Shown here: piece after piece, positions 2,451 to 61,964 of the stretch | Position numbering within the stretch: position 1 is the stretch's first letter | Layout of the letters: every line of letters begins with the position of its first letter | Assembly: GCA_964016885.1 (NCBI GenBank) | Contig: OZ024740.1 | Coordinates: forward strand, 351,664,001 to 351,728,000 | DNA: 64,000 nt | Direction of reading: 5' to 3' | DNA from: Eledone cirrhosa | Taxonomy: Eukaryota | Position numbers and translations under genes: made by a program | Notes under the pieces: model-generated | The model's database searches: none | What the model was told of the DNA's origin: nothing | Seen by the model: the letters and a program-made list of their open reading frames with translations, nothing else

Positions 2451-4936
2451 TTTTGATAATAATTGTTTCCACTTTTGGCACAAGGCCAGCAATTATCCCA
2501 GTTCATTACTGGTACTTTATTTTATGACCCCGTAAAGATGAAAGGCAAAGTTAACCTCAGCGGGATTTGAACTCAGAATGTAAAGGGCCATAACACCATG
2601 CTTTGCAGCATGGTGTTATGGCCCTTTACATTCTGATGCTCTACCAATACTACCAATCCACAATAATAATAATCTATAATATAGGTCATTAACAATGGCT
2701 AATTATTTTAATTTGATAATTGAGTTATTAATTTTGATAAAGTTGTTGATAATTGTGGTGAGTTATTTCATTATAGGAATGTGAGAAAGTAAAAATATTG
2801 AGAATAAAATTGTGTATCTAAACTATAATAAAGTAAGGAGCGCGGGACTGCGTACGGTTTATAATTTTTTTATCCCATTAGTAAAATAAGATGGATTACT
2901 TTGAATAAATAATTGTTACTATTTTTGGCACAAAGCCAGCAAATACCCAGTACAATACTGGTACTTTATTTTATCGACCCCGTAAGGATGAAAGGCAAAG
3001 TTAACCTCAGCGGGATTTGAACTCAGATTGTAAAGAGACATAACTATGCTGGAAAGCGTGTCTGGCCCTCTACCAATACTGCCAATTCACCGCTGAATAA
3101 ATAATGAATGAATATTACATAATTTATCTACTAAATTTTGTGGCTGTTGATTAAATATATTTTGTTAATTTAAAGATTCACTTCTTTAAAATTTCTGAAA
3201 TGTCAACACTTCCGGTTGGCCATTGCTTAAATAGACATACTAATTTTCTCCTAATGCAGTTTATATATAATATCGTCTTTTTTAATGTATCATGGATTAC
3301 GTTACTGATTAAATAAGACAGTTTAACGCAGTCTTCGTTCAATTTCTATGTATTATATATTGCCAATTACGATTTTATTTGATGTATCATATCTACATGT
3401 ATATATACCTGCGTATAATATCAATATACACACTGCACATGCTAGCAGAAAACCACCCTTTCTGTTTAAACTGGCTGTAACCAGTCGCTTATACTGATGT
3501 TAAAGTATTGTTCTCAAAATAAATAATATCAAAATCTCATTGATTCGATATTATGTGAGATAATTATGTGAGATAATTATGTGAGATAAAGCCTTTACTA
3601 TGAAAATATAATAGTAAATATAGAGAAATGTAAATGCTAAAAAGTTAATAGATTGAAGGATAGCTTAGTGGTACACTGATAGATAGAATGATGACTCTGG
3701 TACATTGAATGGTAGTTTTAATAGACAAGGATGGCTCAGTGGTACTTTCATTGATTTAATAGATGGAATGATAGATAAATGCTACATTAAGTGACAAATT
3801 TAATATACATAAGGATAGCTTAATTTTATAGAGTTGATGCTTTTTTGCCTTTCATCCTTACGGGGTTGATAAAATAAAGTGCCAGTAATGTACTGGGTAA
3901 TTTGCGCGCCCTGTGCCAATAGTAGAAACAATTATTTGGTAAGAAGTGAACTGGACTAGTGAGAATAATGTGGTTGAACTGCTTTAAGTTGATGCTTGTA
4001 GAAAAAAAGTTGACAAAGGGAGAATTATTGTTTAGCTCTAGTTCAGACCTATGATAAAAAAAAGTATTTCAGTTATGACCAACCTGTCTTTTTGTATATC
4101 TAAAACTACATTGTTCAATGCATTCTTTCATATTTTAAAGATGGTAAAGTCTTGTGCTTCATAGAAGATCACTAAATGATAAGGGCTAAAGCATTTTCTA
4201 GAGCTTGAAATGCTATTTTTGCAAGAAGCTTGACTTAAGTATCAACCTTATGACCTTTGTATGGTTGAAGCCAACAAAGGAATCTTTCCACAGTGGCTCA
4301 ACCCACTAGAAGTCATCAGCATCATCATCATTTCATTTTACGTCTGCTTTTCCCTGCTTGCAAGGGTGGGATGGGAACTGATTCTGGCTTGATTTCTACA
4401 GCTGGATGCCCTTCCTAAGACCAACCTCATTTACAGTGAGTGGCGGGTGCTTTTTTTTCCGTGGCACCTACACATCCACTTTACAGTGTAGGCTGGGTGC
4501 TTTTTTGCCGTGGCACCTCCACGACCACTCTACAGTGGAATGATAGGGACCCCAGTCCCTATCATCTCATTTTTACAGCTGAGTAAACTGGAGCAATGTG
4601 AAATAAAGTGTCTTGCTCAAGGAAACAACACATCACCCGGTCTGAGAATTGAACTCACAACCTTTCGATTGCAAGACCAATGCTCTAACCACTAAGCCAT
4701 GTGCCTCCATAGTAATAGTAGTAATAAAATCTCTCTGAAACTTCAAAAAGCTCTCTATGTGCCCTTATTAAAGAGATTTTTTTTATTGTATTTATTTGAA
4801 AGCTACTGAAATATTTTTTCTATGAGTGGAATGTACAAAAACTTCAGACTATAACTAGTTGGGGATTCAAATGCAATATGTAACCAGTTAACATATGGTA
4901 TACTCATGAAAAGAAATATTTTTTAAATTGCCTTAC

Positions 4937-30600: not shown

Positions 30601-31003
30601 TGCTCTATATAACCACCTTCGTTTAGCTCTAGGTTATTTGCTTTGGACTATATTTGTAATATGGTTCTTAATGTTATATACATCCTTAGTTATTCTTATT
30701 ATATATTTTTATTATTTTTATTATATATTTTTGCAAGACTTTAGTGTATGTACACTCCATATTCTTCGGAGCTTCCGGCTTGTATCTGCCGATATTACTT
30801 CTTGTTTTTTTGATTGCCCTGATGAGTCCTTAATAGGACGAAACATTGTCGGCTAATAGAAACTTTTGATGTATTAAAGGCTTCTTTGTTTTACTCTCTT
30901 AATTTTTCGGCTCTGTTTAACTGCATTGAGCTATACCTTTTACTGTCATTTCTATAATACGAAGAGGGTGTTTAACTCCAACACGCTCCAGTATTTTAAT
31001 CCT
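27617..31003 (+). mobile_element. 5'-truncated Penelope-like element, Naiad-type (RT thumb, GIY-YIG, long 3' region with HHR)
   Basis: ORF 27972-29015 has FNPPY, CNCRxxxNCPLNGNC, IVY...TYIGST and CNLC; frameshifted upstream part from 27693; perfect 65-bp inverted 5' end; ends at (TA)n. Clade assigned from motif recall. Confidence 0.85.
30813..30857 (+). ncRNA. Minimal type I hammerhead ribozyme
   Basis: GCC-CTGATGA-GTCCT(TAAT)AGGAC-GAAA-CATTG-TC-GGC; predicted cleavage after 30850. Confidence 0.9.
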
Positions 31004-32450: not shown

Positions 32451-32459
32451 AAAAAGTTT

Positions 32460-32561
32460 GTCCTTCATCAGTGATCTTCCAACCATCATAGGCATTTCAT
32501 CGCTTTAAAGACCATATACCTCCGGTTGGTGCGAGCAACGGCTAAAAAAAGTTGTTGGGAC
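32460..32561 (-). ncRNA. Non-circularly permuted (pseudoknotted) hammerhead-like ribozyme, copy 1
   Basis: Reverse complement of the motif in copies 2 and 3; predicted cleavage between 32515 and 32514. Confidence 0.7.
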
Positions 32562-32916
32562 ACGTAAATAAAGGGGACGCGAGGGTAAACAAACAAAATG
32601 GTGAGGCAACAGAAAGTGAGGAAGAAGGAGACAAGTCCCAGATTTCTATGAATTTAAGTTCGGTGAAATCGTGAACGAGAGAATAAAGACCATCAAACTT
32701 GGTTGAAATGTGAGCAAGGAAGGAATTTCGCACAGGTCTAACGGGAGGAAGAAGGGGTCTGGTCTGCGAATTCGGTAAACATAAGTTCTGTGAAATCGTA
32801 GACGAGAGAGAAAAAATTCCGACCAGCTTGGCCGAGAATGTGAGAGAAAAGAGTTACTCCCTTTCTGCTGCTTAAACCATTTTGTTTGTTTACCCTCGCG
32901 TCCCCTTTATTTACGT

Positions 32917-33018
32917 GTCCCAACAACTTTTTTTAGCCGTTGCTCACACCAACCGGAGGTATATGGTCTTTAAAGCGATGAAATGCCTATGATGGTTGGA
33001 AGATCACTGATGAAGGAC
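32917..33018 (+). ncRNA. Non-circularly permuted hammerhead-like ribozyme, copy 2
   Basis: AGGTA-TA-TGGTCTT ... GAAA-TGCCT ... AAGATCA-CTGATGA; stem III AGGTAT/ATGCCT, stem I TGGTCTT/AAGATCA; predicted cleavage after 32963. Confidence 0.7.
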
Positions 33019-33513
33019 AAACTTTTTTCATATGTAACCCATTTGCAACTCCGCAGCGCCCTTATTTTCATATTTACACATATTTTTTCCTCTGCTGCTA
33101 CACCGTCTTTTTCGTTCTATGTATCTTTACCCTTTCTAGCAGTCTCTCTCTCTGTTAGCCTCTTCCTCACCCTTCACTCACTCATTCTCTGTCACTACCT
33201 CTCCTCCTCCTCTTTCTTCCCGTTTGACCTGTGAGTAATTCTTTTCTCTCACATTCTCGGCCAAGCTGGTCGGAATTTTTTCTCTCTCGTCTACGATTTC
33301 ACAGAACTTATGTTTACCGAATTCGCAGACCAGACCCCTTCTTCCTCCCGTTAGACCTGTGCGAAATTCCTTCCTTGCTCACATTTCAACCAGGTTTGAT
33401 GGTCTTTATTCTCTCATTCACGATTTCACCGAACTTAAATTCATAGAAATCTGGGACTTGTCTCCTTCTTCCTCACTTTCTGTTGCCTCACCATTTTGTT
33501 TGTTTACCCTCGC

Positions 33514-33615
33514 GTCCCCACGACTTATTTTAGCCGTTGCTCGCACCAACCGGAGGTATATGGTCTTTAAAGCGATGAAATGCCTATGATAGTTGGAAGA
33601 TCACTGATGAAGGAC
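33514..33615 (+). ncRNA. Non-circularly permuted hammerhead-like ribozyme, copy 3
   Basis: Same core; predicted cleavage after 33560, 597 nt from the copy 2 site. Confidence 0.7.
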
Positions 33616-33666
33616 AAACTTTTTTCATATGTAACCCATTTGCAACTCTGCAGCGCCCTTATTATC

Positions 33667-33703
<37 letters not shown>

Positions 33704-48848: not shown

Positions 48849-50877
48849 CATATATATATACATATATATATATACATATATATATATACATATATATATA
48901 TACATATATATATATACATATATATATATACATATATATATATACATATATATATACATATATATATATATACATATATATACATCACAAGGGTGAAATA
49001 AAGCTATGCCAATAAAGTTTCTTTCTCTCTATCTTTAACAAATATAAGGATGTTGTTGTAAGTTAAAACTTAGCATTTGTTTTTAATGGCTATTAATATT
49101 GGTACTTTATTTTTCATATATCATGCAATTGTTGTGATATATGGATATGTTTCCAGTGACATTATTGCTTTAAATATTTCATGAATTCTCTGATGACACA
49201 AGAATGAGCAGAATTAACATTTAATACCTAATTCTTCAAGTCAATACTCACATTACAATATATAGACACATTTATATACAGATAATGGAGATTGAGCAAG
49301 GTCTTTCAACATTTTTATTTCTCCATTATATTTGTTCTGCTCAAACTTGAGATCTTTCTACAAGTTTGAAGAATAGAAAATATATATATATGTTAGTTAA
49401 GTGTGTAACAACAGTTACAGGCGGCATACTGTTTGACGAATTCAATGCTGTTATGAGGTCCATTTCTTTTGGATTGTATTCCAATATTACGGCTGTAGTG
49501 TGTAAATAGATTTAAAATAGTCGAAGTTATTGTTGCAGCATATGTACAAACTTTATTTGCCTATTACAATTGTTTCGATATTGATCAGCTCAGGGTACAA
49601 TCAAGGTGATGGGCCCGACTCTTTTTCGACATCAACTGAGCTTAGATGTGTCTTTGCACATATAAGCTTGCATCTCTCTCTCTCTATATATATATATGAA
49701 TAAATAAATAAAATAAATATTTATTCAAGAACACACTGTATATTTGAAGAGTTTGAGTAAATTTAAAGTAGATATGACTAGTGTTTTTTTAAATTTATTA
49801 GAAGCCTTAGCTGTGAAAAGATGAACTGTATAATCTAAATAATTCTTCCATACACAGCAAAACATAAGAAATTATTCTTATACCTAGATTTGAGAGAATC
49901 TTTCTCCTCATAAACGAATAACTATTCTTATGATTCCAGTTACAAAGGAGTCATCATCATCATCATTTAATATCCATCTTGCACACTAGCATGGGTAGGA
50001 CGAGTTGACCCTTAGGGAGCGAATCAGGTCAGAGGGCCATGTTTAGCCCACACAGGGCAGATTTTGGTTCCGTTTCTACAGCTGGATGCCCTTCCTAGCG
50101 CTAACCACATTTGCAGTGTGTGCTGGTTGCTTTTTGTCGTGTCACCTACACAACCACATTACAGTGTGGACTGGACATTTTTTATCCAGTTTATTATCTT
50201 TTTAAATACTAATTTCATCTATCTTATGTTTACCATGAATGTTTAAATATACCCTGTGTTGTAACATAAATATTTATTATTTATTTAATTATGCCACCAA
50301 ATATATACAGATTTGAGTGACCAATTCAGGTATTTTCTATATTGTATATGACATATATAGCAAACATTTAATACATGTTGTTTCCATTAAATTGCTAGTT
50401 TATGACATCAAACTTTGTAGGTTATTTACATCATCGAGATTGGTGAACATCTCTAAAGATGTGTAATCATTAGTATAACCAATGAAAATGGTTACAATTT
50501 TCAGGACTATTAACCTCACCTTTAGAGAATGATTTTTTAAAATACTTACTATTCCCATGAATCTTTATGAAAATTATTTAAAACCTGATTTGGTTAGAAG
50601 CTTTTTGCATGCTTTCAGAAAGTATCAGTCTGTTGGTGATCTCTTGTTAATTTTATTTACAGCAAATTATAATCATTGTTTTTATGCCCACTTCTCCATG
50701 CTGGTATGGATTGGAGGAGACTTTTGAGGCAGTTTTTCTATGGTGGGTGCCATTCATTATGCCAACCACAGTAAGTAAGGTACTCAATACATAACAGAGT
50801 ATAAATATTTAATATAGAAATGGCTTCTACAGGACTAGAACTGTTTCATTCGGGAGAAATCATCAGGGCTTCTATAT

Positions 50878-58674: not shown

Positions 58675-59882
58675 CTACAAAGAATAATTTGAAGAAATGC
58701 CAGAAAGAAATCTAAGTGACTTATCAATATGATATTTTGTTTGAAATTTTCTGACAAGGCATCTATCAATCAATCTATCTATAGATCTAACTATTTATCT
58801 ATCACAACTACCTACCTATCTCACATCACCATATCTAATTGTTTATTGTGACTATTGTGATATACCTATCATGTTGAGTTGTACCTGGAGCAGCGTGAAA
58901 TAAAGTGATTTGCTCTAGGACTCAATGCGTCACCGGAAATAGACTTTACAATCATCAGCCTAACGTCCTAACAGCTTAAAAATTACATAGAATGCTTCAC
59001 TTCCAACAATTGAGGAAACAAACCAAATTCCAAGTGCTTACCAATGGGTCTCCGAACACAGAAGAGCTGAACCCCCACTGTCATCGCCTCCATCTCTCTT
59101 GCCCTCCCCATCTCTCAGTATTATGAGCAAATGGGGTCCCACGTGCTGGCCGCCCCACAGCCCCGGCAGACAGAATGGAGAAGGTGTTCCTATCTAGTTA
59201 ACCTATCTAGTTAACATATCTATCCATAAATTAGTCAGTGTATTAACACACACACACACATATATCATCATCATCATCATTACCATTTTATGTCCATTCT
59301 TCCACACTAGCATAGGTTAGATGAGTTGTCCTGTTGTGAACAATGCCAGATCAGGTGACTATGTCTTGCTCATACAAAACTGTTTTCTACAGCTGGATGC
59401 CCTTCCTAACACCAACCTCATTTACAGTGAGTACCATGGCGCCTACATGACCACTCTACAGTGTGGACTGGGTGCTTTTTTTATCATGACACCTACACAT
59501 CTACTTTACAGTGGGAGGGGTGGGTGCATTCTGTCTATATGCTCCAGCTTCTGTTTGTACCTGTGGGAAGTCAGGTCTTCTGTAGTACTGCGTAACAGCA
59601 GAGGTCTCGGTCCTGTGCCATCGCCTTTGAGAGGTGCAATTGGGCCAAGATCAACTTTTATCACTTCATCCCAGGTTTTCTTGGGGTCTCCTCACTCCAA
59701 GTCTTCCATCAACTTTTAGCACTCTGCACCTTTTTATGTAGCTGTTATCCTTATTTTCTACTCGCTCATATATTCACCCAGCTTATACTGATAGAATAAC
59801 TATGTAGCTTGTGTCTTTCCTATCTTTGGTTAGCTTTCCTCTGTGTTGTTTACTTGTCTCACTCGCTTTACGCGTTTTAATT

Positions 59883-59983
59883 GTCCTAATAACTTATTTT
59901 AGTTATTATTGCGCCAACGTGAGGTATATGATTTTTAATGCAATGAAATACCTATGACCGTTGGTAAATCACTGATGAGGGAC
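59883..59983 (+). ncRNA. Diverged homolog of the permuted hammerhead in an older solo repeat
   Basis: AGGTA-TA-TGATTT ... GAAA-TACCT ... AAATCA-CTGATGA with compensatory substitutions relative to copies 1-3. Confidence 0.7.
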
Positions 59984-60698
59984 TCATTTTATAACATGTT
60001 ATCCATGTGCAACCATGCAGTATTCTTATCCCCATTTTTTCACATATATATATATATATATATACATTTTTCTCCAAAAAGTCTGACTGAACACATACAT
60101 GCTTTTACTCCCCAACATTTTTTTCCATTTCTTCATTGTACTGTATTGTTTACTTTGTTGTTTCTGTTAACTTTTTCCATCCATCTGCTGATTCTCCCCG
60201 CCTCTCTCCCTATATATATATATATATAACCCATGATACCATGGAAAAATGGACGTTAAATAGTGATGATGATATATATATATATATAGGGAATGTAACG
60301 TGCAGTTACTGTAAGTTCTGTGAGCACTCGATGCATAGTTTCCAGTTGGTAAAGAGGTGTAGAACTAAGCAGAGTGTAATTATAATAATAAAAGAACGAT
60401 ATGTTATGTCTTCATTACATTTATTGAGTAGTGACCTCTACAGAGGTCCGACGAGCTTTTGATTCCAGAGTCAGGCTAGATTGATACAGATCAAACCTTG
60501 AGCTGATCAATAGCGAAACACACGTCACTACTCATTAAACGTAATGAATACATAACACATTGTTCTTTTATATATATGGGGGAGAGCTGAAGGTGGGATG
60601 TTGGAGCAGTAGGTGGAAGAGAAAACTTAATAGAGGTACATTGAGACCCATGCTGTATTGCTATTGTAGTTGTTAGACTATATTTATTTAATCCTTAC

Positions 60699-60844
60699 CT
60701 CCATATGGATCATCTCTTCGAAGTTTTAGCACAATTATATCATCTGCAGTCTCTAACAAATTAGCAGCCTCATCAGCACAACAAGGTTCCATCCGAATAT
60801 CATTGATGGATAAAAGTTTATCTCTTGGCTGTATAGAACCACAT
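60699..60844 (-). CDS. GRIP1: GRIP exon: C-terminal half of PDZ5 (upstream exons lie outside the window)
   Basis: tttacacag acceptor and gtaagg donor; encodes (R)CGSIQPRDKLLSINDIRMEPCCADEAANLLETADDIIVLKLRRDDPYG, a PDZ C-terminal half; phase 2 to 1, in frame with the next exon. Confidence 0.9.
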
Positions 60845-61964
60845 CTGTGTAAAAGGAAAAAAGAAAACATTAATACGTAATGCTACTTCTTTTCAGTTAT
60901 AGTAGTCTTATGATGAATAAAGTAGACAGCTTTGTTCAATGTTTTAATGAAATGATTTTATGTCTTGTACAGCAGATGGAGTATCAGTTACTCAGATTTG
61001 AAATTATGAAGAAAGAAAGAAAGAGATCTTTTATTGTTTTGTTGACACAGTTAGTTTTAACAGACTCTGAATGATAAGACTCAAAATAAGACACAAGAGA
61101 ACCTTTGTGCTGCTACTTGGCCTGCTAAAAACAGTAGCCAAATTTTCCTCAAATAAGGCCTTACCATCTCATTAAAAAAACAAAAATAAATATAGGAATT
61201 AGATAATATAATGTATGAAAACAAACTACAGAATAATTATGGCTTGAACAAATTCTTTTTAACAATTGATCTGTCAATTGTATTAACTTCAATTCTTGAC
61301 TACCATTTATCTTATTGGTCTACCCCATAGAAAAAAAAAAAACCAATGCTGAATCCCTTACTACAACCCACCCATGACATAGAACAAGGTCATAGATTTT
61401 GGGAAAGTAGGTTCATTTGATACTACAGGCATCATTGCTTGATTCACAATTATTTTTTTGGACCTTCAATAAGATGAAAAAGTTGATCAAAACAACTTAC
61501 TATATATTCTCAAATATAAGCTAGGGAATATATAACCAAAAAATTGAAGGTAGAAGGGGGTCAGCTTATATTCGGGGGTCAATATTTTGATGATTTTCAC
61601 CAACTTCATTTGGAGTTTTGTCCTTTTCTCCGACATTAAATTAGTGGGGTCAGCTTATATTTGAGTATATATGGTAACTATAATAATTTCTAACTTAGGT
61701 GCAACGCCTTATATTTGTAGAGAGAGGATGACATAGTTAATTACAATAACCTTAATACTTCAGTTACTATATTTTATAAATACTGGAAGGATGAAAGCAA
61801 AATTGACATCACCAGGACTTGAACTTAGAATGTAAAGAATTATAAATAAATACTACAAGATATGTCACTTGCCTGATACATCAAAAATGACTTAATCCTA
61901 TGGAATTAGCTATGCTGGAGTTTGAATTCAATGTATATAATTGATACAATGGTGATGGTAAGTA

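Follow-up and report, generated by a model that had tools for sequence, protein, structure and literature searches.

The window, as we call the whole 64,000-nt stretch of Eledone cirrhosa DNA analysed here, contains a 101-nt motif within a 5′-truncated copy of a non-coding tandem element, and three diverged copies of the motif in a second insertion 26.4 kb away (Table 1; the initial annotation had put the distance at 26 kb). Read from 5′ to 3′, the motif begins with a leader that holds the 5′ strand of helix X, an accessory hairpin and the 5′ strands of stem II and helix P. The leader is followed by block S, a 5-nt linker, block G, the 3′ strand of helix P and block C. The helix names X, P and IIb, like the family labels A–F used below, were coined in this analysis.

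Table 1. Positions, within the window, of the motif, its parts and its diverged copies
Feature	Position	Strand	Remarks
Subfamily A insertion	32452–33667 (limits approximate)	.	Inverted copy plus direct partial tandem
Predicted ribozymes of subfamily A	32460–32561 (−), 32917–33018 (+), 33514–33615 (+)		From sequence
Carrier copy	59752–60052	+	5′-truncated single copy, subfamily B, non-coding tandem element
Helix X, 5′ strand	59883–59886	+	Partner 59980–59983
Accessory hairpin	59887–59908	+	Two-sided changes at 4 of 8 pairs (alignment A1)
Stem II, 5′ strand, supplied from upstream	59909–59912	+	Partner 59940–59943
Helix P, 5′ strand	59914–59919	+	Partner 59959–59964; two-sided changes at 3 of 6 pairs
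Block S	59922–59934	+	Stem III 3′ strand, U16.1, H17, stem I 5′ strand
U16.1	59927		In block S
H17 (A17)	59928		In block S; predicted cleavage 3′ of this base
Block G	59940–59953	+	Stem II 3′ strand, U11.1, GAAA, stem III 5′ strand
U11.1	59944		In block G
GAAA	59945–59948		In block G
Helix P, 3′ strand	59959–59964	+	From the covariation alignment
Block C	59966–59983	+	Stem I 3′ strand, CUGAUGA, G10.1, helix X 3′ strand
CUGAUGA	59972–59978		In block C
G10.1	59979		In block C

Core, block order and stem II

Compared with the hammerhead consensus given in PMC3088659, the core of the motif is complete (C3 U4 G5 A6 N7 G8 A9, G12 A13 A14 A15 and U16 H17), and stems I and III are paired and abut it directly. 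The predicted cut, which the initial annotation had placed after 59928, was positioned correctly with respect to U16.1 and H17. The core blocks follow one another in the order S-G-C, as read from the window sequence, which rules out types I, II and III; the classic orders are CGS, GSC and SCG, and S-G-C is a non-circular type (Eckert et al. 2023, PMC10085705). At its gathering threshold, Rfam reported no hammerhead or other ribozyme in the 64-kb window, its one match being tRNA-like (4642–4699, minus strand, just above the gathering score); similar sequence occurs at another locus (L004), and the match is probably the head of a SINE. Two other hammerheads, both of canonical type I, occur in the window. 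One (C-G-S), at 30810–30858 on the plus strand, is minimal, has a near-palindromic stem III and was missed at the Rfam gathering threshold; the other, at about 50810–50875 on the minus strand, is truncated and belongs to a different family that is also present in L307 and L341.

In the type-SGC ribozymes, CUGAnGA is assumed to be followed obligatorily and directly by stem II (PMC10085705). The bases after CUGAnGA formed 0–1 bp of such a direct stem II in 30 of 32 aligned rows; the other two rows, with 6 bp, were single decayed copies, and the direct stem II of SGC proper was therefore rejected. What comes after the 10.1–11.1 pair is a 4-bp helix with the upstream strand. The window motif thus corresponds to an SGC cycle whose opening lies at the A9–stem II link, the gap being closed by helix X and the hairpin. 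Judging from the sequence, the RNA would fold into a normal hammerhead core in which A9 leads into helix X, not stem II. Helix P, which connects stems II and I at their outer ends and comes after the stem III strand, would be the equivalent of the helix formed by the loop I–loop II interaction. Nested folding, to which the pseudoknotted stems I and II are invisible, recovered helix X, the hairpin, helix P and stem III (z = −2.76); the nested minimum free energy structure lacks these two stems and places weak rival pairing at their strands.

The register of the junction at A9 varies between families. In alignment A1, which comprises 50 distinct full-length A/B-type motifs, 10.1 pairs with 11.1 in all 50 copies (A-U in 30, G.U in 20), and one stem II pair is C-G in 37 copies and U-A in 13. 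The 10.1–11.1 pair is G-C in families C, D and E. In coral-type copies, the two positions are A or U with C and cannot pair, and a G partner lies upstream. One possible explanation is that there are two registers, one in which the 10.1–11.1 pair is kept and one in which 11.1 pairs with the leader, the latter being favoured in coral-type copies. The use of A-U or G.U at 10.1–11.1, rather than the usual G-C, together with a stem II that is broken at the core, is a counterpoint to an active hammerhead.

The motif resembles type-SGC (HRIMA-1 and its variants; PMC10085705) in its S, G, C order and full core, in the short linker between the 5′ strand of stem I and the 3′ strand of stem II (5 nt here, typically 3 there), and in an extra helix that joins the far ends of stems I and II after the stem III strand. 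It differs in that block C is uninterrupted in type-SGC, whereas here the 5′ strand of stem II stands at the 5′ end of the motif; the sources also differ, being metatranscriptome, metagenome and RefSeq sequences in the one case and a high-copy animal retroelement in the other. Type-CSG, described by Eckert et al. from two similar sequences, follows the same S→G→C cycle opened elsewhere, and the window motif is not CSG. Both SGC and CSG ribozymes are active in vitro (PMC10085705), environmental S-G-C ribozymes cleaving at the site analogous to the one predicted here. Non-circular permutations are treated in that paper as rarer than the classic types. The passages and supplement text searched name no animal or retrotransposon host, although its alignment files could contain animal examples, and the supplement text searched has 0 mentions of Octopus, Mollusca, Metazoa, Eukaryota or cephalopod.

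Covariation within the window and in a larger alignment

Consistent with the initial annotation, AGGTATA, TGAAA, CTGATGA and GTCC/GGAC are unchanged between 59883–59983 and all three other copies, and the described changes in stem I, stem III, the CCAAC helix, TCGC/TTGC and the hairpin are present. The claim that the helices co-vary held in part: changes are two-sided in stem I (C-G to U-A), helix P (C-G to G-C), helix IIb (C-G to U-A) and the hairpin, but the stem III change and one of the stem I changes are one-sided (G.U to A-U). GTCC/GGAC is invariant as stated and had its 3′ side prescribed by the search pattern, so it lends no covariation support. Two of the diverged copies depart locally from the fold or core pattern: the nearest one (33604) through a C.A mismatch in helix P, the one at 33007 through a mutation in TCGC. 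A whole-architecture descriptor that demands the hammerhead core, stems I and III, the upstream-supplied stem II and helix P matched exactly these four copies in the window, with 0 matches in 40 dinucleotide shuffles (both strands) and 0 in the reversed window.

We then turned to A1, which was drawn from 61 unique stretches plus the window copy; 11 truncated or rearranged sequences and two duplicates of window motifs were excluded or merged. The search pattern had set all of its core letters except N7, U16.1 and H17. In A1, 94.7% of helix cells pair, compared with 89.2 ± 0.3% in shuffled alignments and 29–44% with slid partners, and two-sided changes occupy 139 cells, compared with 49.4 ± 6.3 in shuffles, both being controls that ignore phylogeny. 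The two-sided changes fall in five helices, affecting four pairs of the hairpin, one of stem II, three of helix P, two of stem III and four of the six in stem I, and G.U intermediates occur at two positions. Stem I is paired in 98.3% of its cells and stem III in 88.0%, with U-A/U.G/C-G and G-C/G.U/A-U as the stem III pair variants; a fifth, outermost stem III pair was rejected, as it is unpaired in 29 of the 50 copies. Helix X pairs in 98.5% of cells with zero two-sided changes in A1, and its place is taken by different sequences that pair in coral-type copies and in both family C and family D (by eye). The accessory hairpin is missing from family D (by eye).

Could a chance motif and the inherited similarity of repeats, with no selection on structure, account for these patterns? 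Because the copies are related, shuffle tests overstate significance, and the number of pairs with a two-sided change (14 of 35, compared with 11.4 ± 1.4) was reached by 32 of 500 shuffles and alone is not significant. Pairing is nevertheless kept in 18 of 24 pair variants common to at least three copies, compared with 13 of 47 rare ones (1–2 copies; Fisher p=3e-4, likewise uncorrected for phylogeny), as expected if source elements are under selection and copies decay neutrally after insertion. The low pairing of slid controls, the silence of the descriptor in the 40 shuffles and the recurrence of this topology in families C, D and E and in Naiads, whose helix sequences are unrelated, also count against chance, which is largely refuted and which we regard as extremely improbable. 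These results show a real, selected RNA structure, upholding the earlier reading of the motif as a real family shaped by selection on structure. The proposal of at least two subfamilies was likewise borne out, although it understated the scale, as there are many subfamilies as well as diverged families.

The carrier element, its copies and its relatives

The carrier copy represents ~300 of ~530 bp and runs into (TA)n at its 3′ end; the full monomer is 531 nt long in L012. By blastn, it is mostly 97–99% identical (92–99% overall) to 30 genomic loci that have a common 3′ end. The subfamily A insertion has (TA)n on either side and a period of 597 bp in its direct partial tandem. Tandem copies within 1.5 kb were seen at 24 of 85 non-overlapping loci, with periods of 493–672 and one of 267, and copies on both strands at six of the 85. 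A microsatellite starts 50–69 nt past the motif in 70 of 89 terminal copies and 10–19 nt past it in another 10, and at the point where terminal copies reach the microsatellite, tandem copies have an internal AT-repeat motif and continue through it. The element is thus a non-coding tandem repeat with one hammerhead per monomer, and no RT motif was found within the monomers. It is likely to be a non-coding tandem retroelement derived from a Naiad Penelope-like element. The carrier element and the link to Naiads are additions beyond the initial annotation. Some 650 nt from the window copy lies an exon-like segment with AG/GT borders (60697–60846, minus strand; Pfam PDZ_6, E=1.4e-4, below the curated cut-off), which suggests part of a minus-strand host gene. 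Since the window copy is antisense to this PDZ-like exon, it would not cut that transcript.

In one animal genome (G000, 3.0 Gb), the pattern TGAAA-N20-30-CTGANGA-RGGAC has 16,120 matches, compared with 10 in a reversed control. A 126-nt query gave 1,427 candidates in this genome, and all 40 scored copies were identical, which indicates that the window subfamily (B) is young. A second pattern (172 matches versus 1) exposed the older families C, D, E and F, whose stem I, II and P sequences are unrelated to those of A/B. The strict descriptor is passed by 24 of 30 A/B loci and by seven of 37 loci of the older, decayed families; an A-type copy is present in L089 as well. Yet another diverged S-G-C family, in which A replaces the pyrimidine before GAAA, was seen within an inverted partial copy at L016:45-200. 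In a loose pattern scan of 1/64 parts of a metagenome collection, three of 118 loci were genuine coral-Naiad-type sequences, all from one assembly, and one of these three contigs passes the strict descriptor.

The element is reminiscent of non-LTR retrozymes (PMC7229834; bioRxiv 10.64898/2026.07.22.740005), which are also non-coding tandems with one hammerhead per monomer and thousands of copies and are proposed to be mobilised by Penelope-like elements. By contrast, their ribozymes are type I (C-G-S) rather than S-G-C, and their circles are ~170–400 nt long and highly self-paired (PMC7229834), whereas the monomers here are 493–672 nt, pyrimidine-rich and weakly paired; a circular monomer is 38% paired, with z about −2.1. 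In short, the motif is like a type-SGC hammerhead in a retrozyme-like element, failing the intact block C of the former and the type I ribozyme of the latter.

The positions of insert 5′ ends bear on the form of the template. We counted 366 in the cleavage window, 161 in the upstream window and 312 in the downstream window (about 495/218/600 after rough normalisation), with no pile-up at the predicted cut, although TATA microhomology with the target confounds these counts. The absence of a pile-up argues against a linear cleaved template and fits a circular or uncleaved multimeric one.

The tandem layout raises a further alternative, namely that the fold is real but that efficient cleavage would require a partner molecule, either in trans or in a dimer where strands are exchanged between two tandem monomers. 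Small Penelope hammerheads reportedly cleave in this way. The single base pair at 10.1–11.1 would be in keeping with this, a heavily pseudoknotted monomer may fold slowly, and the SGC ribozymes of Eckert et al. are themselves rather slow (PMC10085705). However, local pairing within 101 nt is enough to close helices X, IIb and P, IIb and P covary, and stem III lacks a short palindromic loop, so we consider this alternative unlikely. Our main reading is that the motif is probably an active S-G-C hammerhead, its stem II 5′ strand coming from upstream, in a likely Naiad-derived non-coding tandem retroelement. The sequence evidence for this reading includes the complete core, the abutting stems I and III, the covariation, the copy number and the specificity of the descriptor.

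Putative permuted hammerheads in Naiads, possible mobilisers and a predicted cycle

Naiads are among the most abundant Penelope-like elements of invertebrates. They are known for (TA)n targets, partial tandems and inverted 5′ copies, all of which the window element has in common with them, and they were reported to be without a canonical hammerhead, with 10 ‘HHR_core’ and eight ‘HHR_half_core’ cases, Naiad_Ovul among them (PMC8557442). Reading their consensus file around 55 of 62 CTGATGA places and 23 of 23 CTGACGA places, with the other two N7 variants covered at few places and motifs split by line breaks missed, we found by eye complete, non-circularly permuted hammerheads in 14 of 54 published records. 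Eight have the form seen in the window: Naiad_Obim, Ovul, Amil, Aacu, Anas and Bfor (the weakest, with a short stem I), and two more near parts 12 and 19 of the file. Five records in the nematode part are clean CSG (Naiad-2_Nbra, Naiad-3_Nbra and three others), and one, near part 17, is SGC proper. In Naiad_Obim and Naiad_Ovul, the 3′ ends have the architecture of the window motif, with a hairpin loop sequence identical to that of the window copy (by eye), and L063 in G000 is a decayed relative of the Naiad_Obim/Naiad_Ovul form. Three records near parts 18–19 have CTGACGA, a distant upstream GAAA and long intervening segments (by eye); these are possibly further variants.

The presence of the permuted fold is likely to be why Naiads were reported without a canonical hammerhead. 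We think it rather probable that the Naiads of ctenophores, cnidarians, nematodes, arthropods and molluscs use reverse-order hammerheads of one cyclic topology with three openings, namely SGC, CSG and a previously undescribed one at the A9–stem II link, where a multi-way junction closes the fold. The literature searched, which covered few subscription journals, contained no report of permuted hammerheads in Naiads or cephalopods, nor of any in which stem II is separated from A9. The layout and the (TA)n preference, which match those of Naiads, together with the 3′ architecture common to Naiad_Obim and Naiad_Ovul, point to a Naiad origin of the window element.

The Naiad comparison also bears on whether the structure still cleaves. 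A hammerhead-descended signal for binding protein or for priming by a Penelope RT, no longer catalytic, would fit a motif that lies 50–69 nt upstream of a fixed 3′ end, and the lack of a pile-up of insert 5′ ends at the predicted cut; moreover, because the pattern dictated the core letters in A1, the fact that they never vary carries no independent weight. Against this stand U16.1 and H17, which are absent from the search pattern: U16.1 is present in all 50 copies, and H17 is A in 45 and C in five, never G. Naiads from distant phyla (PMC8557442), on whose stems the search pattern imposed no selection, also keep full cores with unrelated helices and three openings (by eye). We therefore find a purely non-catalytic role improbable, marginally more so than cleavage by strand swapping, and retain the active hammerhead as the preferred reading.

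A different matter is which element mobilises the repeat. The window element differs from Naiads in having no ORF, with neither an N-terminal GIY-YIG nor an RT, and the Naiad-like RTs elsewhere in G000 are decayed. Searches that give lower bounds found no intact Naiad ORF in this genome, where the longest open frame among 76 Naiad-like RT matches was 233 aa, and motif patterns for an autonomous partner gave 0, 1 and 2 matches. The protein closest to the best Naiad remnant (P0005) combines an RT with a GIY-YIG at its N-terminus, each scoring below the Pfam cut-off; a search of viral contigs with it returned 0 relatives. The frame in L188 gave four protein matches, which were rejected as spurious repeat proteins. 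A recognisable ribozyme lay downstream of none of 20 Naiad remnants, so that in G000 the element is not physically joined to a Naiad ORF, and a set of 20 regions, most of them selected for an intact RT, likewise yielded no link to an autonomous partner.

Intact RTs of other Penelope-like clades are present in G000, and those sampled have canonical type I hammerheads where one was seen. In L335, L337, L338 and L345, Penelope-like RT ORFs of 526–801 aa are followed by canonical type I hammerheads, which are in tandem in L335 and L337; these elements are candidate trans-mobilisers. Families C and D stand beside RT ORFs in L335 and L336, and a linkage there was rejected, as microsatellites or another repeat intervene. 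At L059:1040-1380, the 3′ end of a Penelope-like element with a C-terminal endonuclease bears an apparent type I hammerhead and is followed by (TA)n and then an A/B-type copy. This is a nested insertion into the same microsatellite, and the A/B-type copy was rejected as part of the adjoining element.

The ribozyme could be real and its element either of non-Naiad origin or mobilised at present by a LINE or a different Penelope clade. The decay of all Naiad RTs found in G000, set against the youth of subfamily B, and the intact RTs of other clades speak for this. Yet Naiads are the only coding elements seen with this architecture, the driver searches give lower bounds and the assembly may be incomplete. 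We rate this as a possible but doubtful alternative; it is compatible with the main reading, a hammerhead in a Naiad-derived element, if the present driver alone differs.

On the main reading, cleavage is predicted after 59928 and, by hammerhead chemistry, would leave a 2′,3′-cyclic phosphate and a 5′-OH. Tandem transcripts would be reduced by predicted self-cleavage to monomers of 500–670 nt, which, by analogy with non-LTR retrozymes (PMC7229834; bioRxiv 10.64898/2026.07.22.740005), may be ligated into circles. A Penelope-type endonuclease/RT would nick the (TA)n target and prime at the internal AT-repeat motif 50–69 nt past the ribozyme (target-primed reverse transcription), and copying around the circle would yield 5′-truncated tandem inserts.

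A non-circular permutation for which the 2023 description named no animal host in the text searched (PMC10085705) thus occurs ~16,000 times in one animal genome, with its break at the A9–stem II link, which that same paper took to be obligatorily intact. If Naiads across these phyla do use such reverse-order hammerheads, non-circularly permuted ribozymes are common in animal genomes, and the fold supplies the processing signal reported to be missing from Naiads. It also offers a testable answer to their unexplained ‘half cores’ (PMC8557442) and implies that a large population of ribozymes escapes standard hammerhead descriptors and Rfam. The three openings of one fold would form a natural series in which to study how RNA permutations originate.
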